A DNA stretch of 59,122 bases, filler included, from Squatina squatina (taxonomy: Eukaryota): assembly GCA_031763465.1 (NCBI GenBank). It is 4 parts of 3 records of this genome, joined end to end, with 100 filler letters (N's around TTAATTAATTAA, not from the genome) between each part and the next. Parts side by side here need not be neighbours in the genome. Positions count along the whole stretch, not along the records: positions 27,652 to 40,595 come from JARFOE010967098.1; 3 more parts are not named here. The stretch is one strand, 5' to 3'. Positions within the stretch are counted from its first letter, which is position 1. Each line of letters opens with the position of its first letter. Shown here piece by piece: positions 5,620 through 54,682 of this stretch. A program made the translations under genes and the position numbers. The notes under the pieces are model-generated. The model was not told the origin of the DNA and searched no databases. It was given only the letters and a program-made list of their open reading frames with translations.

Positions 5620-5839
5620 CTTGTTCCCTATCTGCAGTCTAACCTGACTGATTTTAAGCATCTTGAAATCCTGAACTTCAGAAACGGTAGCATCATAGTG
5701 AACAGTCGCATGAAGTTTGCCAAGCCTGTTCCACAGGATGTTACCAATGCAGTTTACCTAATCCTGGATGAATTCTGCAACACAGCATACCAAACTATGA
5801 ACCTTGCCATTGATAGATTTTCTCTGGATGTCGAGTCAG
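5620..5839 (+). CDS. IMPG2: IMPG2 (interphotoreceptor matrix proteoglycan 2) internal exon, second SEA domain
   Basis: 220-nt exon, TTTTCTAG acceptor and GTAAAC donor. Encodes [74 protein letters not shown], closer to recalled IMPG2 ([23 protein letters not shown]) than to IMPG1. Confidence 0.9.
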
Positions 5840-7795
5840 GTAAACTGTTTCCACTATTTTCAGCTTGTTCCCTTAATGTTTATTTTTGTGACTTCATTTG
5901 GATAGATGAGAATGGTCTGAACCATGATTTCTTTGTGACCATGACTAATTCTAAGGTATGACCAATAAGCAGAAGGTATAGACCTAGGTGATCAGATCAA
6001 TACTTTCATCCATCTTGCTGCAGTGCAGTGCATTGTTGAGTTGCTTGGCTAAGTTTCATGGAACTTGCCCAGTCAAGTGAAGTGTTCAGGTGATGGGACA
6101 TGAACTATTGGGGTCTGTTCTATTGGAAGTCAAGTACTGCTTCCATTTTAGCTGCTTGCTATCTCTTCTGGTTCTTTGATTTTGTCATTGTTGAAAATTG
6201 GATAAGGAAAGCAAATAATGACATAACATATGACATTGTTTATGATATAGATCTATGTCAGCAATGTTACATGTGCAAGTTATGTGATCAGCATAGAATC
6301 CTTCAATAGATACACAGATGAATATATACTGACTAGGAATAAGCAACAAACTTGAAATGGGAATGAAAATTTATCCAAATTTAACACTTAAGGTATATCT
6401 TCATTGATAGTCACCTTGCATGATTTGGATTCCCATTTTCTCTTTCTTCTTCCACGCATTCAATGAGAACAAATGCTGCAAGGTGTCATGCTGGCCTTTC
6501 TATGGTCACATGAAGGTCACCAGTAAACCGCTTTTCAATTCTGTTGGATAATTTGGTGGGGATTTTGAGATGTAAAAATGTTTTCATTAGTAGCAAAACA
6601 CTCTCTCCTACGGTACTGTCTGTTTGTGTCACAGGCTGCCTAGAATTTGAAGAGAAGGACCATGTTTGGGGTAAAGACTGTAGGAGCTAGATCCCTAAGT
6701 CCACCAACCTTTTAGAGTACAGCAGCTTCAATGTAAACTGTTTCGGGGGCTGATATTTTGGACATGCATGTCTGGCTCCTCTGCTACATCACTAATAGGA
6801 TTTAAATAATCCAAATTCTTCTGAATGCTCATCCCTGGCATCGTGCTTGTAATAGTTACGTAACAGTCGGGTGATTAAACAGGGTTCTGTGGAGTTCATA
6901 GGGATTATATAGAGATAGAATTGAAGGCAGGTTTTAGAATTGGCTAAATATGTTTACAATTCTCTTATGACTTATTATTTGTGAACTTACTAAACATGAA
7001 AATACCGCATTTATAAACCAGGACTTGGAGTGTAAACAAAAAGTGGCCCTATTTTTAAAAATGTTTGTCTAAGTCATTAGGGGAGGCTTCCTATTTGTTG
7101 CACCTGGGGAATGCTCAGTGAAGACCCGTCTATTTCAGTTTTCCAACTGTGCTTTGCTGGGACTTCCTCAGCATTTCCAGATGGGTACAGCTGGGCCTTC
7201 ATTTCTAGCTTGTCTGATAGTTGGATCCAACAGTCCTATATCCACAGGATTAAAGGCCAAAGAAACCAGGTAATGGTATTTGTGTGGGGACTCTGTGGAC
7301 TGGAGGGTCTGCAGGGGTCCCTGGAGAACCCAAAAGATTTTGCTGGCATGTTTATTTTTAGTGGCTTCATCTCTCCATAGGACAATCTATAAACCTTTGG
7401 ACTTCTGACTGCTGTTCTGTAGTAATCAGAAGGTCCTGATACCAGTGGACAGAAGCATAGCGGCATACCATCAGGAGGCAAGCTGCAAAATTTTAAATTC
7501 AAGGGCACCTCTTTCGTTGCAGGCGCAGGGCACCTCCAGTACATTGTGCCCTCAAAATCCAAGTCAGTTGTATTGCATTATAATCATTCCTGCAATATGT
7601 AATATTGCAGTCTACAAAGCATCATTAAATTGCAATCCTTACAACCACACTTCTCTATCAGCTATTCCAATTGAGTAAAAAGCAATCAGATTATTTCAAT
7701 TATAAAAAAAGAGGCAAACCTTGCCAAATCACTGTTGAAAAGAAAGACATTATCCACACAAACTATTATAAACTGAAAACTTTATTCCATTAGTT

Positions 7796-8268
7796 TCATG
7801 GGCTATTATTTATGGAGTCTTTATTGTCAGTCAATAATGGTTCCCTTGCAGAATCTTCCTCCATACGCTCCTGGCACCAGGGAAGCTTTGCTAGGACTGG
7901 CTTATGGAACCCATTGTAGAGCGCTGCACCTGCCAGCAGGATGAAAAAGCCTAGGATCTGGAGACCATGGAATTGCTCCCAACCCACTGAGAGGCTCACT
8001 ACCCAGATTATTATGGTCCGAAGACTGTCCAGAACCATCCGTGTGGTTGCACTGATTTCCTTTGTGACACTAATACCAGCAAAGTTGAAGAATGCAATGC
8101 TTAAAATGTTTCCCAAGAGGGCCAAAAAAATTAATGGTTTTATCCCTATTTGACAGAAAGCATCAAGTGCATCTTCAAGGACACCTCTGGGGTTGCCACC
8201 AAAATGGCCCACAGGGATATAGTACATTGGAATCAACAGAAGGGTCAGGATGATGAATCCAAACATTC
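7796..8268 (-). CDS. SLC35F6: SLC35F6 terminal coding exon
   Basis: Poly-T/AG acceptor at 8270-8269, then GMFGFIILTLLLIPMYYIPVG...EDALDAFCQ...SIAFFNFAGISVTKEISATTRMVLDSLRT...REPLL...NSP*, characteristic of SLC35F6. Confidence 0.92.
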
Positions 8269-10009
8269 CTAAAAAAAAAAGAGGGGGAAAAAAAAAATTA
8301 CAAAATGGATAGGAAGGTTTGAAAGCCAGCAACAAGTAATGAGAACAGACATTTCACAAGTGAGTTACAGATCTCAAGTACAAGGGAAAAAAAAGCTAGA
8401 AAATTTTGTATGTGGCATTTCCCACTGATGGACATTCTTGGAATTAGAACCATGCTACACTTTTGTACTAATATTCAAGACTAGAGTGTACTAGATTACC
8501 ACTTGACCCAACAAATGTGCCCTGTTTTAGTGGGCAAACAGTGGCGTCAGTCACAGTGTCCAATAGCAAAGATGAATGACTAGCTATGTATAAATTTTGC
8601 CCCCTTGTATATTAACCTAATCCATTTCTAGAAGAACTTAAATTGGCATTGTGCCACTGTTAATACCATATAACAAAGCTATTTACCAGTGAGTAAGCCA
8701 GGAGCCATACTCTGTTCACCATTAGTGGAATGGGTTGTTTGTGGAGTTGGAAGAGGAAGTGAAAGGATAGCAATATTCATTGACATATAGAAATACATGC
8801 AAATTAAAGTTATNNNNNNNNNNNNNNNNNNNNNNNNNNNNNNNNNNNNNNNNNNNNNNNNNNNNNNNNNNNNNNNNNNNNNNNNNNNNNNNNNNNNNNN
8901 NNNNNNNNNNNNNCCAGATTCTTCCTTAGTTTCTTAAATCTGTGCCAAATTGACCTAAGACAATATAGTGAGCACTTTTCCACGTAGTGACATTGTCAGT
9001 TGGTTGGCCCATTTATTTTTGTCCCCCTTGTGTTGATTGGATAATAATTCAAATGCCCAGGTAATACCATCAACATCACTCCATCAAATGTTCTCCCTAA
9101 TGGAACTCCATGGACTATAAAACCTTTTATTTTTTTACAACAATGTATAAAGCTTGCAGCTATTATCTTGCTTCTGTACACTGCAAACACTGACAAATAA
9201 TATTACATAAAAAGCATCATAAGAGTATGATTGGCAAATCTTTTATCATTTGTTTGCAAACATATGATACGATGACGTAAATCATATTGAAATGCATTAT
9301 TACACCAGTTGCATGGGATGGCAATGTGGAGGAAATGATCCATAGCTCCTCTCGCCCAAGCAGAAAGCCTGTTTTTTCATGAATCTAGTGCCTCTTCAAA
9401 CAAAGACAGTCAGATTGTTTTTAGTAAACATTCCCAATTACCAAGGATTAGTGATTTTGTTATTCTTTTAAGTATCTCCAAAAATCTATGGTGTAGAATT
9501 AGTAATAGTAGAATATCTATTAATCAAAATAGTCATTTGATAACTGTTGAGCAAATCATTTTATTAAACTAAGAATTTTATTTACAATGAAGTATAGCAC
9601 AAAACATCTTCAGAAACAGCACACACAACGTTAGGTACTCTAGCATTATATGTAAAGTTATGTACAACATAGATTGAGACAATGCTACATGTGTTTATTT
9701 ATCCCAGTACATCATGGAAATATGCTTCATAATAACAAATAACATAGGAAAACAGATTGCCATTATGCAGTGTTGTCTTATCGGGCCTGTGCACTGGAAT
9801 GCAANNNNNNNNNNNNNNNNNNNNNNNNNNNNNNNNNNNNNNNNNNNNNNNNNNNNNNNNNNNNNNNNNNNNNNNNNNNNNNNNNNNNNNNNNNNNNNNN
9901 NNNNGTGTTGTCTTATCGGGCATGTGCACTGGAATGCAAAAGCTCAATGAACAACAATGAACATGAGCATTGTGCATTAATTGTTGAATGTCTATAGAGC
10001 TGTCGCAGT

Positions 10010-12197: not shown

Positions 12198-12447
<250 letters not shown>

Positions 12448-13961: not shown

Positions 13962-14061
13962 NNNNNNNNNNNNNNNNNNNNNNNNNNNNNNNNNNNNNNN
14001 NNNNNTTAATTAATTAANNNNNNNNNNNNNNNNNNNNNNNNNNNNNNNNNNNNNNNNNNNN
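13962..14061. other. Artificial scaffold-concatenation linker
   Basis: 44 N + TTAATTAATTAA (14006-14017) + 44 N. Confidence 0.97.
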
Positions 14062-27551: not shown

Positions 27552-27651
27552 NNNNNNNNNNNNNNNNNNNNNNNNNNNNNNNNNNNNNNNNNNNNTTAAT
27601 TAATTAANNNNNNNNNNNNNNNNNNNNNNNNNNNNNNNNNNNNNNNNNNNN
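27552..27651. other. Artificial scaffold-concatenation linker
   Basis: 44 N + TTAATTAATTAA (27596-27607) + 44 N. Confidence 0.97.
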
Positions 27652-27755
27652 ACATTACCCCCAATACCATGTGCTTTAAGTTTGCGCACTAATCTCTTGT
27701 GCGGGACCTTGTCAAAAGCCTTCTGGAATTCTAAATATACCACATCCACTGGTTC
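27652..27755 (-). mobile_element. CR1 reverse-transcriptase fragment
   Basis: Minus strand reads PVDVVYLEFQKAFDKVPHKRLVRKLKAHGIGGN. Confidence 0.85.
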
Positions 27756-28432
27756 ATTGTTCATTGTGGATGAGACGGTAAATTTGAATAACTGAAATCA
27801 ATGGATTACATTAACGGCGGGTTCAATGAGCAATATTTGATCTGTGGTGCTCTGCTCAGGCGCTGCCACACATGGAAATATTTCCTTGTGGCTTAGATGC
27901 TGTCCCCCGTCCTCATGGAAATACATGGAACCACACGATCTCATTACCTTGGTCCTCCATTACAAAATCTGCATCTTCGCCACGTTAGTGGTCAGTTAAT
28001 TCCCGAGAAAGTGGGGAAGAGTTCACATTCGCTCCGTGTTCCCAACACAGTTTAGCTTCAGAGTCGGAATCTGAAATGAGCGTGGCTGGATGCTGGGTTA
28101 GTGCAACACGATACACAAATATTAATGGCCTCCAATTAAACCATGAATAAATTCAAACTCAGCTGCCCACCGCATTCTTCCTGTTCATTGCGTGTCCTGG
28201 GCTGGATTTGATTGGAATTCGGGCCGGCTGCAGGAAGGGGATCGGGAAAGTCGATTGGTGGAAAACGATATTCGTGCTAAGCTTTTTCGGCAAAGCAAAA
28301 GTAACACACCGGGGTTATTGGAAATCTGAAGATAAAGCCTGTCGATTGTTTTCGGCCCCCTTTACAAACTGATCTTTGTGAGAGTTAAGCAGACACTGGA
28401 TTGTAACTGTGACACGTTGCTCCCAACATTAG

Positions 28433-28687
28433 GTGACGACGTGACATTACATGTCGACCCGGCTTCCATTTCAGAAGGAGATATTCTGAGTCTGAACTGT
28501 CGCTACAGGCACTACAGGCGTAATTATGATGTTGCATTTTATAAAGCCAGCATTAGGATCCGTTCAATGAAGATGTCAAGCCGTGAAAATCGCCATAGAA
28601 TTAAGGTCAATAGTTTGGAACATAACGAAATGTATCATTGTGCGGTTCACAATAAGCAATCACGACGTGCCCAAGTTCATGTTCGCG
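28433..28687 (+). CDS. FCRL-like Ig exon 1 (D2-type C2 domain)
   Basis: 255 nt, phase 1-1, TAG acceptor and GTAAGT donor. DDVTLHVDPASISEGDILSLNCR...VAFYK...MYHCAV...VHVR. Confidence 0.8.
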
Positions 28688-29229
28688 GTAAGTATGGGGA
28701 ATATTTAAATGGTTCATACCTGAACTAATTTCCCCAAATTACTGGTGTACACACGTGAGAATTTCTGAATCTGAACAAAATTGTACATATCTGCATGATC
28801 TCCAAAGATGTTGTTGCTTCGATCCAATTAAGTTGTTTCGAAACTCGTGTAGTTGAGCCGACATTTCAGCACTCAGAATTCATGGTCCCAACATGTTACT
28901 GTAATTTGAAAAGCTTAATTGATGATTTGCCATCTATTGTTGCTGCCTCTTTAAGAAAGGGAATTTATATTCACTTCAGTACGTTTGTTTAATCGACACC
29001 TGTCGACATAATTGTTTGTATTTCTTTCTAATGGAGTTCGCCTGGTTCTCCTGCTTCCCCTCCATCCCATTCCCCAGTCCTTCTGTTCTTTGCACTGCCC
29101 ATTATACAAATATCGCCGTGATAACCTTCTCGCATTGTATACACCATTATATAAAGATACATACACGATTTGCAAGGTTGATTCCAGAACTACGTAACAG
29201 GAAATAATTAACAGGCTGGACGTCCTCTC

Positions 29230-29590
29230 TCATGAAATTAGAAGGCTGAAAGTGTTTCGATGGATTAGAGACAGTTTACACTTTTGGCAAAGAGCCAAGC
29301 AAAAGGCCATCAATATTAGATAGTCATCAGGAAATCAAATTGGGATTTCAGGAGAAATGACTTTACCTGAGAGTGGTGAGAATGTGGAACGCGCTACCAC
29401 AGGGAGTTGTTGATACGAATAGTTTTGATACATTAAAATGGAGCCGAGGTAAGTATCTGAGGGAAAACGGAATAGAGGATTAAGCTGATGGATTTATATG
29501 AGGAAAGAAGGGAGAAGGAATGGAGTGTAGCATAAATACCGGCAGATACTGAGTTGGTCAAATGGCCTTATGCTGTATCTCCTCTGCAAT
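29230..29590 (+). mobile_element. Degenerate CR1 LINE 3' fragment (intronic)
   Basis: TTCAGGAGAAAT...GAGAGTGGTGAGAATGTGGAACGCGCTACCACAGGGAG (RVVRMWNALPQG) plus CR1 tail. Confidence 0.75.
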
Positions 29591-30167
29591 ATTTATGTAA
29601 TTCTAACACCAAATATGTTTATAAAACATGGTACGACTGCACGCACAGTAAAACGGCAGCACTCTTTGGCTCCATTAGACCTGAATAATAAAGGGACCAG
29701 AGAGCAGAGAGACACAGCACCGGATCAACTCCCCTGCCAGCGCGCCAGATATAGTTCACTCTTCCTCCCGCTTGTCTGGGAAAGCCTCGGCGCTCCCCCC
29801 ACCCCCGCCCTCCGCCCCGCCACACCTTCACCGCATTGTCATACCCTGTTTCCACTGATCAGATATATATGACCATGCCTCCCATCTCAACTGTCAGGAG
29901 GGGAATATTGCCTGGCCTGGCGAGCCAGTTTCAGCAGAAACATTGATGCAGTATAATTCCTCGCAGATATATCAATGGGAGGAATTGTACAATAATGTTT
30001 TAATGCTACCTGCTCGCTCCAGCTGCTGCTTACCAAGAGTATAATGAAGTCCAGTCGCTTCCTCCTGACGAATGTCATTATTTGATTACCTTTGCTCTTA
30101 CAGTGTGTAAATGGTTTATCTCTGTGTCAGGAAATATTAGGTATTAATCAGCAATATGTTTGTCCAG

Positions 30168-30446
30168 AACTCTTCTCGAAACCGACATTGTGGTCTGAGC
30201 CTGAAGGTGAAATATTTGAGGGACAACAAATGATATTCTTCTGTTCTGTCGGAACAATGCCTCCCAATATTCGGCTTGAATACTCATTTTTCAGAAATGG
30301 CCACGCGGCAAATTTTAATTCAGGTGAAACGTATCAATTCACAAAAGTAGCTTCGTTGAAGGACTCGGGGACGTACCATTGTGAAGCAAATGCATTCTCC
30401 CACAGTGTGAATAAGAAGAGTGATGAGTTTTCCATTTCGGTAAAAG
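30168..30446 (+). CDS. FCRL-like Ig exon 2 (D3-type domain)
   Basis: 279 nt, phase 1-1, CAG/GTAAGT. ELFSKPTL...FEGQQMIFFCSV...LEYSFFRNG...DSGTYHCEA...KKSDEFSISVK matches the FCGR1/FCRL D3 pattern ELF..P.L...EG...C...FSF...DSG.Y.CEA...KRS. Confidence 0.88.
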
Positions 30447-31250
30447 GTAAGTCCAACATCTGTAATTATTGTTCATCTTTCATCGAAAGAACTCCTCTGG
30501 GTTTTGTAGGTAAATAAACATATGGGAGCAATCTAATCTCGGCAGGGGCTTACCCACAATTTTATCGCACAACAAATCAATTTAGAGCAGATTTAGTTGT
30601 AACAAAGCTTGGCGTTGGTCTTACACAATCCACACATTTGATTAAGACATTGTTCGAGCTGCAGAGTTTGAAGACCAGTGCGCACTCCCAGTGGGGAATG
30701 TTCGATTCCTGCAATCGTGTAGAATGGACGGTATTGAATTTTCCGCCCATTATATTTCCCGCCCGTTTTTTTGCTCCCATCATCTTCAATGGACAGAAAA
30801 TTCATGCACGGTGTCCAATTGAGGCCGGAGATACCGCCCGTTTTACCCAATGGCCCCACGGTAAAAATTACCCCATCTGTTTCACTCTGTCTGAATCAGT
30901 AAAGAGCAGAACCAGCTCAGGAATAGCAGGGTCTTTCGACAGACAGCGCCTTATGGCTCGCCAGTTCCCAAAATCTTTCATATCTGAAATTTCGGGGGTA
31001 AAATTTAACTTTCAGGGCGCAAAGGTTGAGTGTTTCAAATGTTCAGATCTCTGGTGATAGCTCTGTCGGTATCCTAACATGCAGATTCCTGTAAGCAGAG
31101 CGCATTCAAGGATTATTGAAAGTATCCTTCTCTGAGCCGCTGTCAGTATTGCATTGTTCCGATCGGTAACACTTGCTCTACCAACACATGGATTCCTAGT
31201 TCATGAGAAATGCTTTTGCTGGAAAATCCACATTGTGTACTATTTTATAG

Positions 31251-31529
31251 AGCTCTTCTCTGAACCTACATTGAGTGCTGAGTCTGAAACGCAATTATTT
31301 GAGGGCCAACAGTTAACACTCGCCTGTTCGGTTGAAATGTACCGCGCCGGTTCTTCATGGAACTACGGATTTTACAAAGATGGACAAGCTCTCAGTTCAG
31401 CAGCAGATTGCAACTATTACATCAAGGACACAACTCGAACCAGCGATTCGGAGATTTACCAGTGTGAACAAACTGCTTTGGGCAGTGAGGGGAAGAAACT
31501 GAGTAATCCGATTTCCATTTCAGTCAGAC
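31251..31529 (+). CDS. FCRL-like Ig exon 3 (D3-type domain), splice donor mutated
   Basis: 279 nt, TAG acceptor. ELFSEPTL...FEGQQLTLACSV...YGFYKDG...DSEIYQCE...ISISVR. The expected donor position reads GAGAGT rather than GTGAGT. Confidence 0.82.
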
Positions 31530-32421
31530 GAGAGTACAATTTATTGCAATTATTTATCATCTTTCATCCATATAATTCCCAGCACATGCTCACAATGGGA
31601 TTCTTCCTTCTAGAACAGGGCGCAATTATATTTTTTATAAGTACTAGATAAATACATTAATAAATCGTGTCATGGAGAACAAGAATAGATTAATATTTGA
31701 GTTTATACAAAATATTCTTCAGGTCATAGTTAATGTGTGCAGTTGTGGGCTTTGAATTCTAAAGGGAACTTTAAATTCATAGAACACGGACAGTGTTGAA
31801 TCACTAGCATTGCGCCCTGGTGGGAAACTTTAAACATCAGTTTAGACTTGAGCTTCAGAGACGAATACCGCGAAAGCAACTAAGGTTGAGAGGAAATGCA
31901 CTGGTGCGTTTGGAGTTTTAGGCTGAGGATAAATTAAATAAGGTCCCGTGTTTCCTTGGAATGTGAGTTCAGGAAGAAGGGATTATCAATTCATAATTAT
32001 CACGAAAAGCGGGAGGATAGAGCTTTGAAAAACTTGCTTCAAGTTGACGAGTGCTGGAACACAGTATGAATTGCCACGTCGAGAAATCGAGTAGAATACC
32101 GTGATTTAGGTAGAGCAGGACTTATGGTGGTGGAATAGTGCAGAATTCCTGCCTGTGACTAACAGCGTCAGTACGAATCAGGACCAGGCCAGAGATTGCA
32201 GTGTGGCCACCAGTGGATAGCATTAGGAATCATTTCAGGATCAGGATTTCCTCTATTAATTCCACCTACGGCTAAAGTCAAAGAGGGAGACGGCCGCCCA
32301 ATATTGGATTGGAAACCTGATTAGCGAGGCTCTATATTATGATGAGAGACCAATTTGACTGTGAAAGTGACACTACACATTGTACCAAAGCAAAGTAATT
32401 AACAAGTGGAACTATTTACAG

Positions 32422-32709
32422 GGATCCCAGTGTCCAAACCGGTACTGGCCATCAAACCTGGTGAAGAGTTAATAGAAGGAGACACAGCGTCTTTAACTTG
32501 TTCCGTGTCCAACGGTTCTGCCCCGATTACCTACATCTTCTACAAAGACCCGAATAAAGAACTCCACCGGGAGGCGTCCGAACTAACCGCAGTTACCTAC
32601 CAAATCGCTGAAGTCAATGAAAGCAGCAAAGGAGAATACAGTTGCGGGGCGGCAAAGCAGGCAAAAGACATTCTGCAACACAGCGAATCCGTTGCAGTTT
32701 CAGTGATAG
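32422..32709 (+). CDS. FCRL/PECAM-like Ig exon 4 (D4/D5-type)
   Basis: 288 nt, phase 1-1, CAG/GTGAGT. (R)IPVSKPVLAIKPGEELIEGDTASLTCSVSNGSAPITYIFYK...GEYSCGA carries the PVS.PVL...C....GS.PI.Y.FY motif of FCRL D5 domains. Confidence 0.88.
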
Positions 32710-34031
32710 GTGAGTTAGTACAAGTACCTCTTTCGCGAAATGATACAAGCGACTCAAATGCTGGCCAACCCGGGAACTAGTGAGTGTGCGGTAAGCTTGG
32801 AAGATGTAAAATCTTCACTGACATTCCTCTATTTGAAGGGAGGCACTGCGCCATTTACATTAAAGCCAAGAATAAACATTGAATGTCATCTGAACAGCAA
32901 ATGTTGATTTAAAAACCGCAGCAGTTATTTGTAGTTTGAAAGAAGCGGATTGCTCTCTTTGTGTGACGAATTAAGGGATTTTATGCAGATAGATTAATGT
33001 TTCAAAGCTTAATACCATAGGCAGTAATTGCTGGGCTTTGATTTTAAGACCATCATTTCTCGATAGTTGTTGCTAATGACCATGAAATTGCGGTCTCCCT
33101 GACGGTGCACACTCAGACTACTCTGTCATAATCCGTTACAAAGGGTCACCAAATTCCTGGTGTACACATGGACCAGCGCACGCGCGAAATCCGGAACTTG
33201 CCATCAATCATGGAAATCCAGTATTGCGGGCACAGTTTTGGAATATTTGCGCAGTTACCGCACAGCATTTGAACAGGAAAGTCTTACGGATGCTAAATGC
33301 AGAAGTTGGACCTGCTTTCATCAGCGTCACTCTCGATAAAAGCCTTAAATTAAAATTTCTACCCCAACACGCTTCAGCTCAATTGGGCAACATAGGTTGT
33401 AGCCCTGTATTATTGGAAGGTTGGCAGCAGTGGAGCACTCGGCCTGCAGGCCGGAGTTGTACATCACTGTGTACGGGGTAATTGTAACTTTAAGCGAAGG
33501 TGAAACATCTGACATGTTGAAGAGATTCTACCCATTATAAACCCCAGCCCTGCATTTCCTTCCATATACTTCAATGAGGAGAAACACCGGGTATGGTGGA
33601 TAATTTGACATTGTGCATTTCCCACCATCTTGTCAAATTTAATATACCACTTGCGCTGTTCTGCATGAAACTCATCCCATGTTGCAATGTTGGCTGACTG
33701 AACCCATGAAACTGTGGTTTGTGATTAAGGAATTATCCACCTGAGTATCAGTGCATGAACGAATATACTGGGAAAAAGAATCATGTTCTGTGGTCGCCCA
33801 ACTATGGCAGTATCTGATCGCTCACCTTGTTTATACCCCACATGATCTACAGATAGACCTAATATTCTACAGCACTGATACAGCATGAGGAATATTCTGA
33901 ATTTACGACTTTACCCAATGCCTTTACATAGTACCTTCAATTCTTGCACGAGTCTAATTTATTTTCTGATTTATCATAGTTCTTATGAGACCTAATTCTC
34001 TGCACCTTTATCCTTAATTGCTTCCCTCTAG

Positions 34032-34334
34032 TTCCTGTAGCTGAAGCTTCTCTCACCTCCAATACCAACAAAACGGTGATTTCAGTGGGGGACCGTCTCG
34101 TTCTCTAGTGTTATTTGAAGGCAGGCACTGCACCGCATTTCCACTGGTACCTGAACAACCAACAGTTAGAAAGCACCAGCGAATCTTACCAATTAAACAC
34201 GCATGGGAGTGAGCTCATTAACAACTCATTCCAGACAGGCCACGGAGGTTGATATCATTGTGTAGCGAGCAACAGATGGACCAATACAGGGTTATTTAAC
34301 GCAATCAGCAATTATATCGACCTCACGGTACAAG
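34032..34334 (+). pseudogene. FCRL-like Ig exon 5 with two in-frame stops
   Basis: 303 nt, phase 1-1, TAG/GTAACA. VPVAEASLTSNTNKTVISVGDRLVL*CYLKAGTAPHFHWYLNNQQL...GHGG*YHCVASN...IDLTVQ retains the Ig C, W and YxC residues. Not in the ORF track. Confidence 0.85.
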
Positions 34335-34639
34335 GTAACAGATTCATGATGTGATGTTATGAATTTCTTTTCTTTTGGCCAAGCGAACAGTATATTCAAG
34401 TTTGTAGCACTGAAGGACAGCTAGTGAGAGAGATAGAAAGGTGAATATTAATTAGCGCGGGACAGGGCCGTTTGGATCCTTTGATGATTGTGGACCAGAA
34501 AGTAAGACGCTGTAAAAATCGAGCTTAGAGGTGACAGTCCAAGGATCAGTGTTTCAGGGTGGAGGGACTGAGAGGGGTGGAATTTGTAACACCTGGAGCG
34601 CTATTATCTTATTCATCGATTACCTTTCTATCATTCCAG

Positions 34640-34741
34640 GACAGAGTTACACAACCGCGATCACAGCATCCGTTCTTCCACTTTTTCTCATCACGACCCT
34701 GATTGTGTTAGTTTGCTTTAAACTTCGGAAGGAGAAGCAAG
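34640..34741 (+). CDS. FCRL-like transmembrane exon
   Basis: 102 nt, CAG/GTGAGT. GQSYTTAITASVLPLFLITTLIVLVCFKLRKEKQ is an uncharged hydrophobic helix followed by basic stop-transfer residues. Confidence 0.85.
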
Positions 34742-35284
34742 GTGAGTAATGTCTTCCGAGCAGAGGGATTGGCTCTATAGTCACGAGGCGGGATTCACTC
34801 CCCTCCATAATCAGTTGCACCATTCGAAATGTAACAAGTTTTCAGAGTGAGATGCATAACGTGGGCTGGGGTAGGAGACGTTCTTTGCACTGATGTGCTT
34901 GGTTCTGCCATGAACTGAGGTGCTGTGTTGAGGACAATCCCCCCTCCACCCCACCCCACATACACCTTATTATATCCTTGAAAGTTATGCATCTGGGCAG
35001 TTGACAGAACAATAATTGGCAGATGGTTAATGACACGATGTGAAATCCGATAGTCGGTTTGTAGTGCATGGTAATATCTTAAAAGGCATCCGGATGATAA
35101 TTGTGCATTTTACTCTTATTACATGACTTACATAAATTCACGTTTACAACAGTTGACAAGTAATCTCAATGACAATGTTTGCTGTTTGGTTTTCATTAAG
35201 TAATCTCCAATCAAACTGCAGGCGTTAAGAGCGCAATATTTACTGCACAACTTGCTCAAGTATGTCTCTTTCTATTATATCCAG

Positions 35285-35315
35285 AATACTCCTCAATCAT
35301 TGCAACGCCGCAGGG
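35285..35315 (+). CDS. FCRL-like cytoplasmic mini-exon 1 (YSSI)
   Basis: Pyrimidine tract + CAG, 31 nt, GTAAGT donor; EYSSIIATPQG; phase 1 to 2. Confidence 0.7.
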
Positions 35316-35689
35316 GTAAGTCTGCAGAATCTTTAAATTATTAAGCAATCATGATATCCATCAATATCATGTAGGAGTGATATTATTCTTGGGCTTGGAT
35401 GCAATCCGGCGCTTTTGCATCTGCCACCAGTGTACGCCTTGAATGGAACTGAAAATCGGCCGGGACAGAAAGGGGCGGTAGGTGCCCTACCGCCAGTTCT
35501 CTGCCCCCTTCCCCCGCCGCTCTCCCCACGCCCAAAATTCGAATGTCACCAGAGAGTCTGTGATAAAGCTCCACTTGAGACGGTTAAGTGCTAAAAACTT
35601 CTTTCATTATAGTTGATACTTTTTAATGCATGCACAGCCCAGTCAGCCTATCAGCGGTGTTGGGGATTTTACTGGAAACTATTATTCAT

Positions 35690-36015
35690 ACATTCATGGA
35701 AACCTGCAGTACAGGGGGTGGCCAGTCGGCCCGTCTTGCCTGTGCTGGATCTTTGGCAGAGCAGTCGTGCACTGCCCCACATCCCCGTTTTTTGTCCGTC
35801 ACCCTGTCAGCAGCTCACTCTCAAAAACCTGTTCAACACAGTTTGAAAACTTTTTATGAAATCAACTCCCAACACCTTTTCAGATCAAGTGTTGCAGATC
35901 CAGACAACGCTCCAAGTGAAATAAAAATTCTCCGAAACTCCATTCTAGTTCTATTTGCAATGAATTTGAATGTCAGACCTCTGGTTATTCACCCCTTCGC
36001 CAGAGGGAATACTTC
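35690..36015 (-). mobile_element. Degenerate CR1 LINE 3' end
   Basis: Minus strand shows RG..F...RTRM..R.F motifs and a CR1-type tail. Confidence 0.6.
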
Positions 36016-36059
36016 TCCTGTAAAATGTCTAATTGATCAACATTCTCTGTTTACTCAGC

Positions 36060-37295
36060 AAACAATTAATTCAAGTTAGACAGATACGATGTAGTTCAGT
36101 CCATGCTGGCTCTCCTTGGTTCAGCCACTCCTTTGCAAATGAAAAACTGTTTTGTTCCTGATGGTTCATCAAGATGGTGCAGTAGATTTTTTTCATGTGC
36201 ACTTTTGGAATGCATTCAACAAAGTGCCTCACAAGAGGCTTGTTAATAAGGTGAAAGCCCCTTGGATGAAGAGGAAAGTGGCATTCAGGATACGGAATTG
36301 GCTCAGTGACAGGAAGCAATGTGAGGCGGTGGATGGATGTTTCCAAACTCGGAGTTGGTTTTCAGTGACGTTCCCCAAATTTCAACGTGGGGCAGATATG
36401 TCTTTGCCATTTTTTATCAACAATCTAGACAATGGAGTAGGCAGCAACATTATAAAGTTTGCTGATGATTCAGAACTTGTCCAGGCATTAGATAGTAATG
36501 AGGATGGTTGTAGGCTTCACAGTGACCTAGACTGGAATGCATAAATGGGCAGAAGTGCAGCAGATGCAGTTTATTGCAGGGAAGCGTGAAGTGACGTGTT
36601 TCATGAGAACTAATGTCGAATTACATTAGGAAATAAATAACATGGTTTTCAAAAGTGCAGATCAACAGAGATAACTCGGTGTCCATAGACATAAATCCTT
36701 CTCAAATGCTGGCCAATTTGATACGATGGTTAAAGCTGCATATGGTTTACCTGGGGGTTTATACATAGAGGCATAGAATATATAAAAAAGAGAACATGAT
36801 ATAAAGTTATGAATCACAGGATAGACCTCAGCTGGACAATACTTGACACCACACGTCAGGAAAGATTTACAAGGCATAGAAAAGGTTCCGAGATGGTTTA
36901 CCGGGCTGTTTCCAGGGATGAGGGAATGTATGTACGTGGTGAGGCTGGAAAATTAGCACTTGGATAATTCGATGTTTTAATGCAGTAGCTGGAGAGAAAA
37001 GGCTATTCCCTCTGGCGGCTGGGCCAAGTAACAGAGGCCATAGGTTGTAAATCATTGGGACAAGATCGAGAGGGGAGAGGTGGAAAATTGTTTCCATCAG
37101 AGATTTATTGGCTTCTTGAGTTCTCAACCTGAAGTAGCGTGGAAGCAGATTCCCTCAATAATTTAAAGATTCTGGGCAGGTGCTTGAGGCTGAGGACCTT
37201 AAAGGCTGTGGATAGAAGCTGGAGTGTGGGGTGAAGTGCCATTGCTCCTTCCAAGTTGTTTAAGTTCTGTATGCTTACTGCTGTAACCTTCTATA
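36060..37295 (+). mobile_element. Degenerate CR1 LINE ORF2 (RT to 3' end)
   Basis: AFNKVPHKRLV, IRNWLSDRKQ and FINNLDNGV...IKFADDS motifs, with frameshifts and stops, then a CR1 tail. Confidence 0.85.
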
Positions 37296-37384
37296 AATCT
37301 ACGGTTCTGTAGCAGATTGTGGAAAGTGAGATTTGAGTTGTTGATGCATCAACGTTTCATTTCTGTGAACATTATTTTACAAAG

Positions 37385-37476
37385 GGAGGACACTGGGAAT
37401 GGACCTCTGCCCCCGAGTGAAGAAACATCTGGGAGCAATATGGTGTATGCAGTTCTGGAATCAGCGCGAAATACCG
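37385..37476 (+). CDS. FCRL-like cytoplasmic exon 2 with ITIM-like MVYAVL
   Basis: AAG acceptor and GTAAGT donor, 92 nt, phase 2 to 1 (restores the frame after the 31-nt exon). EDTGNGPLPPSEETSGSNMVYAVLESARNT. Confidence 0.7.
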
Positions 37477-39477
37477 GTAAGTGTGAACTGATGTGACAAT
37501 ATAACGTTGATTGTTCACGGTAAAATGGTCCCTCATGTTCTCCCGACAACCAGTCATAATTGCAGCGAAAACTCAGTGAAAACTTCATAGAAAATGCCGC
37601 TTCTGCCTGGCTTGTGCCGATGATCCATCAACGTTGTGACGGAATGTGGTGGAAATCGCCCAGTATCTTTAGATTTCTTCATCTGCATCCAATTAGCATA
37701 AATAAGTTTGACCCTTACGTCATTATAGCTTGGACATTAAGCATCGTGTGAGTCGAGGGAAATAGTTTGGGGAGGTTGGCACGCTTCAATAGAATCATGG
37801 GCTTGGAGAGAAAAACCGGTTGGCTCAGTAAAGGATGTGATTATTGCCCTCGCAGACTGACCTGCCTGTTTCCTTTGCAGCTGAAGTTAACTGCTCCGAA
37901 GCCCAGTCAAAATGCTAGCGCTTAATCTCTTTCATCCTTGAATTCGTTAAATCCTCCACATCTTCTCATCCTATTTTCCTGAATGGGGTGATTATTACTC
38001 GGATGGGATTGATAGGGGGCCATCTGGAGGCCAGTATAAATGAATTAATCTGGGATCGTGACAATCAGACAGAATGAGCAATGGGTGGAGTAGTGAAATG
38101 AGATGGCGACCTTTCACCTTCCCACCTTTATAATTAAGCAGTCTGAGCAAAGGATACAGGAGCTCGACCTCTGGCCGATGTCGCGGTGCCTGACCTGGAG
38201 ACAATGAGGCCAATTGTGCTGCTCATCGTCCCCCTGTTTACAAGCATGAACTCACCACAGCCCCATGGCTTGAACTCAAGCGGCGTTGTGCCTTTACTCG
38301 CGGTGCTGCAGAGTCGTTTACATTAACCAGGTTAATTAGTGGCTACATTTTAAAAGCAGTGATAACAGTAGTAAATTTACAAGCATAACTTATACGATGG
38401 GTCTGGTCTCTAAATGCTTCCCTGTGCAACTATACAACTAAGCAGTTTCCTCCTTTCCTCCTTATCGCTTCTACTTCTGATCAGGCAACCTACAGCGAAG
38501 GGCAGTGCACAAATCACATGAAAGGTACAGATTTGTTTTCACATATCTGGAGGGATTTGTTTATCCCACAGCCTTTGATAATTACTCTGGAGGTTACCGA
38601 TTTTCGAGATACTGTGCAATGTTATCTGGGAAGGGTTTGAGTCGCTCGACGCATGACAGGACTGAAAATCCTGCCCCAAAATATCAAAATTACTATTGCC
38701 GCATTCTCATTTCCATTTCATGGGCAGAGTATCCTTAGAACTTGCAAACAAGCTCCCCCGTTCTGCCTTGAGGATTGCTACTTTGTGGAACATCGTCATT
38801 GACCTCAATAATAATTTTGCAATAAACTTCCACGAGGATTCCAAATGAGTAATATAAGTAGATCGATATTATTCAAGGCAGACAACGTGTACATCTTGCA
38901 AATATTTTCAATTCTTGGACAGTTAAATCAAACCTATAGACCTCCCACATCTAAATCGTCCGGCAGGATGATCGGAACAGGTTTCACACAACACTGTGAC
39001 ATTTCAGGTGAGAATGAAAGTCAAAAGATCGATCTTGCTCGTGATATCGAATCTCACGAAGTCTAAATGAAATTCACAGTTACTTAATTACAGTTGAAGT
39101 GCAATTCCTGTCCTAATGGAGGCAAACAACAGCCAAAGAGGCCATTCCAACTTTGTGTAATCGTGCAAATTAGGCGCTGTCAAATATGGCGCACCTTATC
39201 TCCTCTGATGTATCGGTCGCCAATATTTGATTCATTGGATTGAATGGAATTGGTCCCAGTCCCCGCATGGAATTGGCAGTCAGGAGCTTTCACACAGATT
39301 TTGTAAACATGCGTAAGATGCAGTTCCTCCCCTCCCACATTTATTGTCCCAAAGTCATATACAATAAATAGCTATATATCATCTTTATTAGACTGATGAA
39401 AATTAAATGTCCTCAGCATATCCAATATATTCATATAATGAATCGTATTACTGTTGTCTTCGTTCAGATCATGTATG

Positions 39478-39630
39478 TCATCTATTCATCTCTCCATCTA
39501 TTTATCTATCTATCTATCCATCTAACTATATCTTTATCTATCTATCTATCGATATCACTCCATTTCTTTTACATTCTTCTCTCTATTGATATCGATCATC
39601 TCTCTATCATCTATACATTAATCTATCATC
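39478..39630. repeat. Degenerate (ATCT)n microsatellite
   Basis: ATCTATCTATCTATCCATCT... Confidence 0.8.
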
Positions 39631-39677
39631 TTGCAATAATCTCTGTTTTTGTTTTTATTTATATGATACCAACACAG

Positions 39678-39728
39678 CTGACGACTTAGTGTATTCGGTG
39701 ATCACGATCAGAAATTCAAGAGACGGAG
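39678..39728 (+). CDS. FCRL-like cytoplasmic exon with ITIM-type LVYSVI
   Basis: CAG acceptor and GTAAAT donor, 51 nt, phase 1-1. ADDLVYSVITIRNSRDG. Confidence 0.65.
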
Positions 39729-40362
39729 GTAAATTGCATCAATTTATTGCATCTGTTGCTGGGGGAGATGATACATACATTTGGAAATGTTGAGGTCAGC
39801 TATTACTTTTAAGATGGGCTTCTGTGACATATTGTCAGTCACTTCAGGGGCTAATGGTTAAAATAATCACTGCAGTGGTTTTGCTAATATCGCTGCGAAA
39901 GTTTGGAGGGTGACCAGAAGAACACTCGGGAATTAGCGTCATGTGGAAAATAAAATCAGGCCGAGTGTAAAACCGGCATCCGACATGCTCCCGCCTTTTT
40001 TCTGCCCTGCAGTAAAAGTGGAAACTTACGCGAATGTACAAAAAAGGATATTCAAAAAGCAACAATAGTATTTATACAACACGCTTAACTTAGACGAAAC
40101 GACTCGAGTTCAATCACAGATGTAAATGTGGGCTTGGTGAGGTGAGTCTGAGGTTGCAAGTACCGTTTTGTCTATAATAAGATGATTAGAATGAAAATTC
40201 TGTACTCATTGGCTGCATATGATCTGTGCACGCATCTGAAGAGGGCCCGCAAGTTCCGGCCTTAGGGCAGCATTACAACTGCAGTGGGGGAATTTTGAAC
40301 TAGGGGCCTCGTCCCAGAAGAAGGGATCGTCCATTTATGGCGGACAAAAGGAGGACTGGAAT

Positions 40363-40595
40363 TCACTGGAATTTAGAAGAATGAGAGGGAATCTTATAGA
40401 AACGTGCACAATTCTTAAGGGATTGGACAGGCTAGATTCGGGAAGAATGTTCCCGATGTTGGGGAAGTCCAGAACCAGGAGGCATAGTTTGAGGATAAGA
40501 GGGAAACCATTTAGGACAGAGATGAGGAAAAACTTTTTCACCCAGAGAGTGTTGAACCTGTGGAACTCTCTACCACAGGAAGCTGTTGAGGCCAG
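40363..40595 (+). mobile_element. CR1 LINE 3' ORF2 fragment
   Basis: EFRRMRGNLIETCTILKGLDR...RTRRHSLRIRGKPFRTEMRKNFFTQRVLNLWNSLPQEAVEA. Confidence 0.9.
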
Positions 40596-40695
40596 NNNNN
40601 NNNNNNNNNNNNNNNNNNNNNNNNNNNNNNNNNNNNNNNTTAATTAATTAANNNNNNNNNNNNNNNNNNNNNNNNNNNNNNNNNNNNNNNNNNNN
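40596..40695. other. Artificial scaffold-concatenation linker
   Basis: 44 N + TTAATTAATTAA (40640-40651) + 44 N. Confidence 0.97.
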
Positions 40696-41622
40696 CTCCA
40701 ACATTTGTGGTGGCCATAGCCCTGCAAATAGGAGATACACATCGGAACAAGGTGCTACCTAGTACTGGACACTGACAAAACTCAATGCATTGTAGATCCT
40801 GTGCTCATTCATTATGAAGAGATTTGAATCATTCAACGCATCAAAACATTCACATTATTAAGCTACCACTTTGCATGAGCTAAGTGTGGATATGATAATA
40901 TCATGACCAGCTATTAAAACATTTTAAGATCAGCAATGATAAATTTAGAAGCATTAGAGGGTCTTACTGTGAAAGTGATGTGGTTATTCCAATTATATGT
41001 AAGATTATTATACTGCAAGCATTAAATGGTGATTGAATAACATTTATGGTTTTTGATAGCTGGTTCTATTTCTGATGCAAAGCTTTTTGGTTTATAGCTT
41101 CTCGTTTGAATAACTGCTATTACCTTACATTTATTGAAGAGCAGCACTGCCTTGATACAAGTTCTGCAGTAAACCCACACCAAAATATTACACATAAAGT
41201 AGCAGTTAGCATCGAAATGGAGTTGAAGACCAATGAATAATATATTTCATTTACTTATTTTACATCTGCCCATGAGAAACTGGAAGTGTGGGTGAATTAT
41301 TTGGAAACTGTTGTTGCTTGATTTGAATGAAGTCACAGTTTACAAATTAATTCAAATGTAACCATTAGCACCATTGTCTATATGTCATGTTGAACACTGC
41401 TCTTTGAATTGTAAGTCATGCCTTGTGTGTTGGGGATTTTAGGTTATCTTGTCAGTTTTTTCGATCCCTCAATTTTGTTCATCTCTCCGATTTGCAGGCC
41501 ATAGACAACTGGAGGGTCTTTAGGACTAATTCGTTTGCTTAAATTGATAATTAAATCAGTTTTTGGTAGGAAATTTAATCTCCAGTTATAATTTACAACT
41601 ACCTGTGATTTTTACCACACAG

Positions 41623-41725
41623 AAAATTGAAAGCCTTTGCAATAAAGGAGTGAAGAAAGTAGCTTGTGGAACCCAGTTTTCTGTTGTACTAATGAAAGAT
41701 GGACATGTATTCACTTTTGGACAAG
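41623..41725 (+). CDS. HERC1: HERC1-like E3 ligase exon, RCC1-like domain (RLD2)
   Basis: 103 nt, CAG/[40 protein letters not shown] versus recalled HERC1 [34 protein letters not shown]. Confidence 0.82.
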
Positions 41726-41869
41726 GTACCTTTTTATCTTTCCCCACTCATACAGTCATGTTATTGTAAGCAATAAAATACTGATGTAACATTTAGACTA
41801 TAAATTAATAGAGGCTGTAAATGGTTTTTGGGGTGATTCATTATACTCTGAAGCTACTTGGTTCAATGT

Positions 41870-53620: not shown

Positions 53621-54009
53621 ACAACTTGTTTAAGAGCACAATGATAAAGCTCCTGAGATAGCTTGGCTGATTGAGGTAGACAAGCCACAAAGACTAGGAA
53701 GGTCTCAGGATTGATTCCTGATCCGTGCGGTTAGCTCACCTCAAGTGGAACCACTACAGGTACTCAATTAGCCAGCATCACTATTTAAGGGAGGAAAAAA
53801 AAGCACAGGCATTGTCAGTCACAGGTGTTGTCAAACTATGAGTTAAAACTCGAGCAACTCATAAAAGAAAGGTAGTTATTAATATGTTAACTGTAAAATT
53901 TCTTTAATGTGCCAAAAGTCACTCGCTCATTAACAAAAAGGTATTTTTGAACCTTACAATTAGTTGTTTCAACAATTTCCAAGTACAAAATAAGGTTGAC
54001 CAAACTTAC

Positions 54010-54159
54010 ATTATCATGGCTAAGCATCACTCCTTTAGGGTTCCCTGTGGTTCCAGATGTGTAGATTAGCATACAACATTGATTGGCCGTCTGAGAGTTT
54101 ATGATTTCATCCAACTCTGCATCTGCGATACTATCCCCCAATTCCATGAATTGCTTCCA
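54010..54159 (-). CDS. ACSBG2: ACSBG2-like exon with the AMP-binding P-loop
   Basis: 150 nt, phase 0-0, AAG/GTAAGT. WKQFMELGDSIADAELDEIINSQTANQCCMLIYTSGTTGNPKGVMLSHDN. Confidence 0.88.
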
Positions 54160-54682
54160 CTTAGTAAAGTTTAAAAGGCAATTATTACACACGTTCTCTA
54201 AAAACAGCTAAATAATATACCTTGAAATATTTAAATGAGAAAATCATAATAAACTGATGTAATGTTAAATGCACAGTCATTGGTTGAGTTAACTGCTCAA
54301 ACATGTACAACTGACATAATAAATAAAATTAAGAACTCTTACGGAATACACATCTGGATCCTGTTGTTGCAACACGTCCTTGTATTGAACAATTGCTTTG
54401 AGCTGAGGCAACTGACTTCGAATCTAAAAATAAGAGTCAAAAATAGTTTTAAATATTCATTACAAGATTTAATAACAAAATATGGAGCAAGCAAAGTTCA
54501 TTCAGCTCACCAAACACACTAAAACCAAAGTGTATGTCCATTTTATCATGGACTTCCCATAGACAAAATTACTGAAATTACCNNNNNNNNNNNNNNNNNN
54601 NNNNNNNNNNNNNNNNNNNNNNNNNNNNNNNNNNNNNNNNNNNNNNNNNNNNNNNNNNNNNNNNNNNNNNNNNNNNNNNNNN

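Follow-up and report, generated by a model that had tools for sequence, protein, structure and literature searches.

A likely non-functional copy of an FCRL/XFL-family receptor gene in the shark Squatina squatina

We found that a locus in Squatina squatina is quite probably a headless and tailless copy of a shark FCRL/XFL-family gene, broken at five places and, on account of these five breaks, likely non-functional. It lies in the window (the whole 59,122-nucleotide stretch of DNA analysed, pieced together from unrelated records, filler included) on a gap-free contig of 12,944 bases (about 12.9 kb) that carries no neighbouring genes. A first-pass annotation had described a gapless chain of nine phase-compatible exons encoding a receptor. 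All nine were recovered in place, their phases chain and five of them are Ig exons; however, a tenth exon had been overlooked and the start of the last exon was wrong. That the chain encodes a receptor did not survive the detection of five lesions: two stops lie in frame and three splice sites depart from the canonical dinucleotides. The ten exons are as follows.

28433..28687, plus strand: Ig exon 1, FCRL D2-type; AG/GT intact; E replaces the F-strand G
30168..30446, plus strand: Ig exon 2, FCRL D3-type; intact
31251..31529, plus strand: Ig exon 3, second D3-type; E replaces the F-strand G
32422..32709, plus strand: Ig exon 4, FCRL D4 or shark PECAM1 domain 4 type; intact
34032..34334, plus strand: Ig exon 5, D6 subtype; two in-frame stops, both splice sites kept
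34640..34741, plus strand: transmembrane (TM) exon; helix without a charged residue
35285..35315, plus strand: tail exon 1, 31 nt; its Tyr is private to the window copy
37385..37476, plus strand: tail exon 2, first Tyr motif MVYAVL (ITIM-type IEYAVV in paralogue L074)
38468..38524, plus strand: tail exon 3, 57 nt, phase 1-1, one Tyr; overlooked earlier
39663..39728, plus strand: tail exon 4, ITIM LVYSVI; ends in a donor

All five Ig exons, initially proposed to encode C2-type domains, matched Pfam Ig families (E 2e-4 to 2e-12); the fifth is not plain C2 (Ig_3 48, I-set 36.5 and Ig_2 36.2 bits). Because exon borders are common to the window copy and its paralogues, the exon structure is not due to chance. 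Each Ig domain occupies one phase-1 exon and the TM exon stands apart from several tail exons, the gene build taken as a criterion from PMC2413239. The same one-domain-per-phase-1-exon build is also seen in other IgSF genes and is not diagnostic of FcR/FCRL. The donor at the end of tail exon 4 indicates that the gene ran on beyond the contig. The 781 bases upstream of exon 1 yielded no leader exons, of which FcR/FCRL genes have two, the second being 21 bp long. Likewise, the 867 bases that follow the last exon did not show the final ITIM/YxN exons known from intact relatives; the leader and final tail exons would lie off the contig.

Neither an open frame nor a full set of canonical splice sites runs across the window copy. 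The five lesions are listed below.

31530..31531, plus strand: lesion 1, exon 3 splice donor GA, not GT (GT in paralogues L015 and L016)
34106..34108, plus strand: lesion 2, in-frame TAG in exon 5
34250..34252, plus strand: lesion 3, in-frame TGA in exon 5, also present in sister copy L020
38468..38524 (exon), plus strand: lesion 4, tail exon 3 acceptor CG (AG in 3 of 3 paralogues)
39663 (exon start), plus strand: lesion 5, ancestral acceptor of the last exon AT (AG in 2 of 2 paralogues)

The start at 39678 previously assigned to the last exon corresponds to a cryptic AG inside it. Decay extends to the rest of the family in this genome: the nearest sister copies, L002 (96.6% at the nucleotide level) and L020 (91.6%), are both broken, and among 18 further Ig exons of the family read in the Squatina squatina genome, 7 contain stops.

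A locus that still works would have to skip its broken exons, giving a shorter D2-D3-D4-TM-tail receptor or a secreted D2-D3-D4 form, with exon death as remodelling. Several observations are compatible with this. The Ig exons are all in phase 1-1, and skipping exons 3 and 5 together with the dead tail exon leaves an open frame of 365 codons; exons 1, 2 and 4, the TM exon and two tail exons retain AG/GT; and rays are naturally without D6 (P0016-P0018). Exon 2 gave dN/dS values of 0.33-0.56 against paralogues, and the 21 nonsynonymous versus 4 synonymous changes of exon 3 on the window copy's branch, an excess of amino-acid changes, look neutral on this branch (ratio 1.4), but these counts are small and also cover time before decay. 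Moreover, three exon skips and use of a cryptic acceptor would be needed, whereas the stop-bearing exon retains both splice sites; the F-strand glycine is gone from exon 1 and both nearest sister copies are broken. We therefore consider a working locus unlikely. Far less credible still is that a fragmented, low-coverage assembly (1.15 million contigs) introduced the lesions by error and that the real gene is intact. The contig has no gaps and the five point lesions are independent of one another; relative to paralogue L021 each stop is a C-to-T transition, one of them also occurring in a separate contig, and the introns align colinearly with those of paralogues. The window copy is thus most likely a pseudogene, and the multigene family to which it belongs is decaying. 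Tandem duplication within a birth-and-death cluster would have given rise to such a copy before it decayed, and the stop shared in D6 would either predate the split from sister L020 or have recurred at a CpG.

The original assignment to a cartilaginous-fish FCRL/XFL family was borne out by domain profiles, a D6 clade, kin shark and ray proteins, and the model of an intact relative. Profiles and trees together typed the series as FCRL D2-D3-D3-(D4 or PECAM-like)-D6, both placing exons 1, 2-3 and 5 among the FCRL D1-D6 ectodomain subtypes. The FCRL type outscored the best PECAM1 type for exon 1 (36 vs 26 bits), exon 2 (68 vs 40), exon 3 (52 vs 28) and exon 5 (80 vs 24). By contrast, exon 4 scored 56 bits with FCRL D4, 58 with shark PECAM1 domain 4 and 45 with FCRL D5, and its grouping as FCRL D5 gave an AU p of 0.054, so that its earlier reading as a D5 domain is not upheld. 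Nor is the PVS..GS.PI.Y.FY motif diagnostic, since shark PECAM1 exon L007 outscores the window exon on human FCRL5 (170 vs 144 bits). Intact relatives possess a D1-type domain as well (P0016 d1, 48 bits). At the level of the whole protein, shark P0019 scored 193 bits with coelacanth FCRL and 173 with caecilian FCRL, against 133 and 117 bits with shark PECAM1. A CD22/Siglec profile was never the best for any window domain. Membership in CD22/Siglec or CEACAM, which have an N-terminal V-set domain, was rejected as intact relatives start with FCRL D1/D2-type domains; CEACAM gave weak PDB matches, and CEACAM rows stood outside the trees. A best PDB match to FCRL5 was discarded as proof of membership, the same top match being returned by shark PECAM1.

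Trees were built with FastTree on 168 domain rows and with IQ-TREE (WAG+G4) on 73 of these, a set that was thinned of redundant rows (frog, gar, sturgeon, shark and siglec) and contained no own-genome paralogue. Exon 5 grouped with D6 domains of Xenopus, Bombina, caecilian and coelacanth (SH-aLRT 96.7 / UFBoot 100), and the Xenopus row of this clade is the published D6 of XFL 658.5. The D6 subtype was called Xenopus-specific in the XFL paper (Guselnikov et al. 2008, PMC2413239). In AU tests on 91 columns, one of nine constrained trees was rejected (D6 with PECAM1 d4, p=0.023); those left standing include D6 with PECAM1 d5/6 (0.17), D3 with PECAM1 d3 (0.34) and the D2-type with PECAM1 d3 (0.39). 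The IQ-TREE search was not optimal, one constrained tree being 4 log units better.

All 15 matches in a search with exon 4 (D4) were shark proteins, 47-66% identical, while 11 of the 23 matches to a D3 profile came from sharks or rays and 4 were frog proteins of FCRL build. Closest to the window copy (42-68% identity per domain) are RefSeq shark and ray models (P0001 from Heptranchias, P0004 from Pristiophorus, P0019 and P0043 from Heterodontus, P0002 from Carcharodon), which share its domain series, TM and tail motifs; P0019 and P0002 also have its five-domain order. The reading frames of these models are open and include both a leader and the final ITIM/YxN exons, whereas the window copy is broken and cut. 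RefSeq names them automatically as Fc receptor-like 2/3/5 or PECAM-like. Such names were set aside as proof of membership, as 6 of 34 shark PECAM1 rows are also named Fc receptor-like; the automatic names are unreliable.

The window copy is without D1, and the receptor head was modelled on a protein of another species, the intact P0043 of Heterodontus (horn shark), in a template-free run of AlphaFold, which has seen FcγRI. Residues 23-289 of this model superimposed on FcγRI D1-D3 with a Z of 18.1 and an rmsd of 2.5 Å over 254 of 262 residues, and all 50 rows of a search with the head were Fc receptors or FCRL5. As a control, a model of shark PECAM1 retrieved human PECAM1 first, with Fcγ receptors only at rmsd 16-32 Å. 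Foldseek with the whole P0043 model was unspecific (PirB top at TM 0.14). Intact relatives are thus predicted to share a bent, FcγRI/FCRL5-like D1-D2-D3 head.

These results bear on a different origin, in which inhibitory adhesion receptors of the PECAM1/Allergin kind would have expanded in sharks, or the family would have branched off on its own from a common FCRL-PECAM1 ancestor, and would act by cell-cell adhesion and not as FCRL. The best single matches of exon 4 are shark PECAM1 domain 4 (59 bits), to which it is sister in the ML tree (81/75); most PECAM1 groupings are not rejected by AU, 5 of 15 matches are PECAM-like by RefSeq name, and the title of a 2002 paper ties FcR to PECAM-1 structurally. 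PECAM1 itself, with a six-domain ectodomain (shark P0189; own-genome exons L007 and L010), has related Ig domains and a Tyr-motif tail. It is, however, a separate gene, sharks owning a colinear PECAM1 orthologue with its own D1-D2. P0189 matches human PECAM1 over D1-D2, whereas P0043 gave no PECAM1 match at E 1e-10 and no family row exceeded 22 bits with the PECAM1 d1 profile or 34 with that of d2. Nothing in PECAM1 corresponds to D6, which falls among tetrapod FCRL domains, and intact members, unlike PECAM1, run colinear with FcγRI both in sequence and in predicted shape, the control model having no Fc-receptor bend. A PECAM1-type origin appears improbable, and we retain the assignment to FCRL/XFL.

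The TM helix is indeed uncharged, as first described. Among the three tail motifs noted, only LVYSVI fits the ITIM pattern: MVYAVL has M where paralogue L074 has I, and the Tyr of YSSI is private to the window copy, whereas paralogues L074 and L070 carry N. Of the 25 family proteins that have a real TM, all contain one or more ITIM-pattern motifs and 20 finish in YxN, as do caecilian and toad FCRL. The proposed inhibitory build is supported by the sequences, the window copy combining an uncharged TM with one ITIM-pattern motif. An activating NxxR TM was seen in none of 26 shark sequences scored and none of 4 own-genome TM exons, in searches that favour long inhibitory forms. A family search of the assembly for the FcRγ adaptor gave one match, which we take to be CD3-zeta-like. 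FcR-locus markers (SLAM/CD2, IGSF9, DUSP23, TAGLN2) were not seen among the neighbours in 400 kb of scaffold C91, a stretch that is 57% N on a scaffold with one family exon.

From FCRL biology, intact members would be type I leukocyte receptors whose outer D1-D2-D3 head, with its predicted bent FcγRI/FCRL5 shape, may engage ligand while a D3-D4-D6 stalk holds it out. Co-ligation would lead to phosphorylation of tail ITIMs, recruitment of SHP-1/SHP-2-type phosphatases and damped B-cell or myeloid activation. We tentatively propose clustered immunoglobulin Fc (pentameric IgM) as the single most likely ligand. Among human FCRL1-6 only FCRL5 bound hexameric IgG-Fc and the mouse FCRL5 protein showed no such binding (PMC12757038), and XFL does not conserve the Fc-contact residues (PMC2413239), indicating that Fc binding is not family-wide.

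The novelty implied earlier is lower, since RefSeq already auto-names the family and Wang et al. reportedly described elephant-shark fcrls in 2021. The literature searched, with subscription journals mostly outside its coverage, yielded no paper describing shark members of the family, and PMC4536121 contains no passage on sharks. Cartilaginous fishes are without FCRL or Fc receptors according to a 2014 survey and a 2026 review (PMC4016189, PMC13337447), and Ig-Fc receptors escaped identification in a single-nucleus study of the nurse shark (PMC10529500); the title of a 1988 report, as cited in PMC6795676, speaks of Fc receptor activity for shark IgM. The window copy itself is of little weight. 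It is the under-described family that may include the shark IgM Fc receptor, and its intact members, with their predicted FcγRI-like head, offer concrete candidates on which the question can be tested. The full proposition, that sharks carry a true expanded FCRL family with an FcγRI-shaped D1-D2-D3 head plus D6 and that the shark IgM Fc receptor, long looked for, is one of its intact members, is possible but doubtful. If true, the Fc-receptor scaffold would be as old as antibodies and D6 an ancestral jawed-vertebrate domain, not a frog invention. On the grouping found here, the shared D6 places the set of FCRL domains as far back as the first jawed vertebrates.

Human FcγRI and FCRL3/4/5 are colinear with the family over D1-D2-D3 in sequence and predicted shape and provide the best PDB sequence matches for exons 1-4, but identity is about 23-26% and D6 is missing from the one mammalian FCRL sampled. 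The TM of activating classical FcRs is charged, unlike that of the window copy. The XFL TM2 inhibitory class (PMC2413239), caecilian P0179 and coelacanth P0180 resemble the family in D2/D3 types, a repeated D3, a membrane-proximal D6, phase-1 exons, an uncharged TM and a multi-exon Tyr tail. They differ in sequence (about 30-43% identity per domain), and the shark family is without a clear D5; XFL also has activating NxxR partners, which were not seen among the 26 shark sequences scored. The caecilian FCRL tail has an ITIM followed by YxN at its end, and coelacanth P0180 shows the order D3-D3-x-D6-TM, as in the window copy.

The exons lie within a single contiguous record without gaps (12,944 bases; window 27652-40595; G000:C967098). 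The spacers at 13962-14061, 27552-27651 and 40596-40695 each consist of a 12-base linker with stops in all frames, flanked on either side by 44 N. As the window consists of four separate parts joined by these spacers, nothing outside 27652-40595 neighbours the gene. All nine exons proposed by the first-pass annotation were found where it had placed them, with chaining phases. Each of the five Ig exons matched Pfam Ig models, and paralogous contigs aligned with this one through exons and introns at 65-94%, indicating that the exon structure is real. Comparison with paralogue L074 revealed an overlooked tenth exon at 38468-38524, and moved the start of the last exon from 39678, a cryptic AG, to 39663. 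That last exon terminates in a splice donor. In the 867 bases downstream of it, no counterpart of the ITIM and YxN exons that end intact relatives was found, and in the 781 bases upstream of exon 1 no leader. A TCTA-type simple repeat occupies 39480-39559, and decayed pieces in the ORF list at 36143-36541 (intron) and 40240-40595 (contig end) are reverse-transcriptase remnants, presumably of LINE class.

The exons had been read as encoding an inhibitory receptor; the exons stand and the product does not, as stops and non-canonical splice sites interrupt the copy.

Lesions of the window copy and the corresponding state in paralogues
31251..31529, + strand, exon 3: splice donor GA; GT in paralogues L015 and L016
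34106, + strand, exon 5: stop; CAG in paralogue L021
34250, + strand, exon 5: stop, TGA; CGA in paralogue L021, TGA common to sister copy L020
38468-38524, + strand, tenth exon: acceptor CG; AG in 3/3 paralogues
39663, + strand, start of last exon: acceptor AT; AG in 2/2 paralogues

In addition, the F-strand G is replaced by E in exons 1 and 3, private changes in exon 3 comprise 21 nonsynonymous and 4 synonymous ones, and the Tyr of YSSI, formerly counted as a tail motif, is private to this copy. Elsewhere in this genome, stops interrupt at least 7 of the 18 further family Ig exons and at least one of the three further TM exons read, minimum counts given the fragmented assembly. The window copy is likely part of a pseudogene that descends from an inhibitory receptor gene of the shark FCRL/XFL family; it would make nothing, or else a transcript cut short at the stops in exon 5. 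Less probably, the same locus may give a remodelled transcript skipping the damaged exons, since their omission leaves an open frame of 365 codons.

The family assignment behind the pseudogene reading was examined with domain profiles built from non-family rows. The FCRL profiles contain more rows than the PECAM1 profiles. Exon 1 scored highest as FCRL D2, at 36 bits against 26 for the closest PECAM1 type; the highest scores were to FCRL D3 for exon 2 (68 vs 40) and exon 3 (52 vs 28), and to D6 for exon 5 (80 vs 24). Exon 4 tied between PECAM1 d4 (58 bits) and FCRL D4 (56) and scored 45 as D5, the type first given to it. An ML tree (IQ-TREE; 91 columns, 73 of 168 rows) placed exon 5, together with its orthologues in sharks, in one clade with the membrane-proximal FCRL domains of Xenopus, Bombina, caecilian and coelacanth (96.7/100; 91 in FastTree). 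The Xenopus row is D6 of XFL 658.5 (supplement of PMC2413239), and this source describes the subtype as Xenopus-specific. Exon 1 joined FCRL D2 at 91 in FastTree and not in IQ-TREE; forcing this clade gave the best likelihood. AU tests rejected one of nine alternative topologies, and tree placements other than the D6 clade are weak. Whole Heterodontus P0019 and Carcharodon P0002 scored higher with coelacanth and caecilian FCRL than with shark PECAM1; whole ray protein P0016 scored 192 with caecilian FCRL, 123 with partial coelacanth FCRL and 143/122 with PECAM1.

All 15 matches in an exon 4 search were shark proteins. Among named family proteins, those of a sawshark and a sevengill shark were closest. 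A D3 profile search added rays, then frogs, and a deep search, in which 20 of the 150 matches listed were identified by name, added caecilian, coelacanth, sturgeon, gar, teleost and one mammalian FCRL. Automatic names mislead in both directions (PECAM-like on 5/15 family matches; Fc receptor-like on 6/34 rows of true shark PECAM1, namely P0185, P0193, P0194, P0196, P0204 and P0214), and shark PECAM1, whose orthologue P0189 matches human PECAM1 D1-D2 colinearly, was thus taken as control. Ray members P0016, P0017, P0018 and P0062 pass directly from a fourth-type domain to the TM, without D6. L006:451-738, a more distant Ig exon of this genome (39% to exon 4), scored 63 bits with the FCRL D4 profile and equally with that of PECAM1 d4, and may belong to a second FCRL-like lineage. 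For two further orphan Ig exons of FCRL D4/D5-PECAM1 type, L008:368-634 and L009:1501-1791, the fetched proteins included nothing close (35-45%).

Intact Heterodontus P0043 was modelled with AlphaFold2 from 24 sequences of sharks and rays and without templates; mean pLDDT was 73, with values mostly of 85-95 within domains. Its residues 23-289 superposed on FcγRI with Z 18.1 and rmsd 2.5 Å over 254 of 262 residues, and on FCRL5 with Z 15.6 and rmsd 6.3; all 50 rows of its superposition list were FcγR, FcεRI or FCRL5. By contrast, the shark PECAM1 control model ranked human PECAM1 first, with Fcγ receptors at rmsd 16-32 Å. FcγRI, FCRL5 and FCRL4 share this three-domain shape (PMC12757038). An FcγRI-like head is predicted for this relative, a shared fold being no proof of binding.

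FCRL tails with ITIMs recruit SHP-type phosphatases and inhibit. Intact family members have an uncharged TM. Among the 25 family proteins with a TM, some of them isoforms (six more without TM and one spurious match were left out), all carried one to four ITIM-pattern motifs and 20 a terminal YxN. By analogy, intact shark members would recruit such phosphatases and inhibit. Between species, the D2-type domain varies somewhat more than the stalk (mean identity 0.40 vs 0.45-0.48), in keeping with a part that faces a ligand. For intact members, Ig Fc is the likeliest single candidate ligand, albeit a doubtful one, because IgG binding is absent from most of the FCRLs assayed (PMC12757038) and Fc contact residues are absent from XFLs (PMC2413239). 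No NxxR activating partner was seen among the shark sequences scored, in searches that favour long inhibitory forms, and no FcRγ exon in the family search of this fragmented assembly. A single TM exon of the zeta/gamma family turned up in this genome, L073:348-434, which we take to be CD3-zeta-like.

This kind of gene is already known, and the window copy is a further member; the present analysis contributes the D6 link and a shape prediction checked against a control. Two elephant-shark fcrls were reportedly described by Wang, Belosevic and Stafford in 2021. PMC4016189 states that FcRL is absent from sharks, and PMC13337447 restates this. In the portions available, PMC11372145 lists fcgr1a-like, fcrl3 and fcrl5 by automatic name in bamboo-shark B cells, PMC10529500 has no Ig-Fc receptor among cluster markers, and PMC5278576 gives GO terms only. 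A paper of 1988 with the title Fc receptor for shark IgM is cited in PMC6795676. Since automatic naming labels shark PECAM1 as Fc receptor-like in several species, the 'fcrl5' of shark expression studies may be PECAM1. We found no description of the family in sharks in a search of mainly open-access literature.

Elsewhere in the genome, a lone intact D3-type exon (L012; G000:C91:140925-141200) was the only family exon in the 400 kb (57% N) read of scaffold C91, and no marker of the FcR locus or of the LRC could be made out there; this is either a misplacement or an unexpected locus. Nearby pieces are Pfam-supported neurexin, glycosyltransferase and CHD genes, the last presumably CHD3-like, along with pieces that we take to be AHNAK-, ZBTB3-, VPS51-, SLC22- and MYBPC-like. 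The other parts of the window carry unrelated fragments.

Fragments in the other parts of the window
5620-5958, + strand: SEA-domain gene fragment (Pfam), presumably IMPG-like
7799-8353, - strand: presumably the last exon of a membrane transporter, SLC35F6-like
12202-12447, - strand: two-pore K+ channel fragment (Pfam), presumably KCNK3-like
41551-41766, + strand: RCC1-repeat exon (Pfam), presumably HERC-like
53890-54207, - strand: AMP-binding exon (Pfam), presumably ACSBG-like
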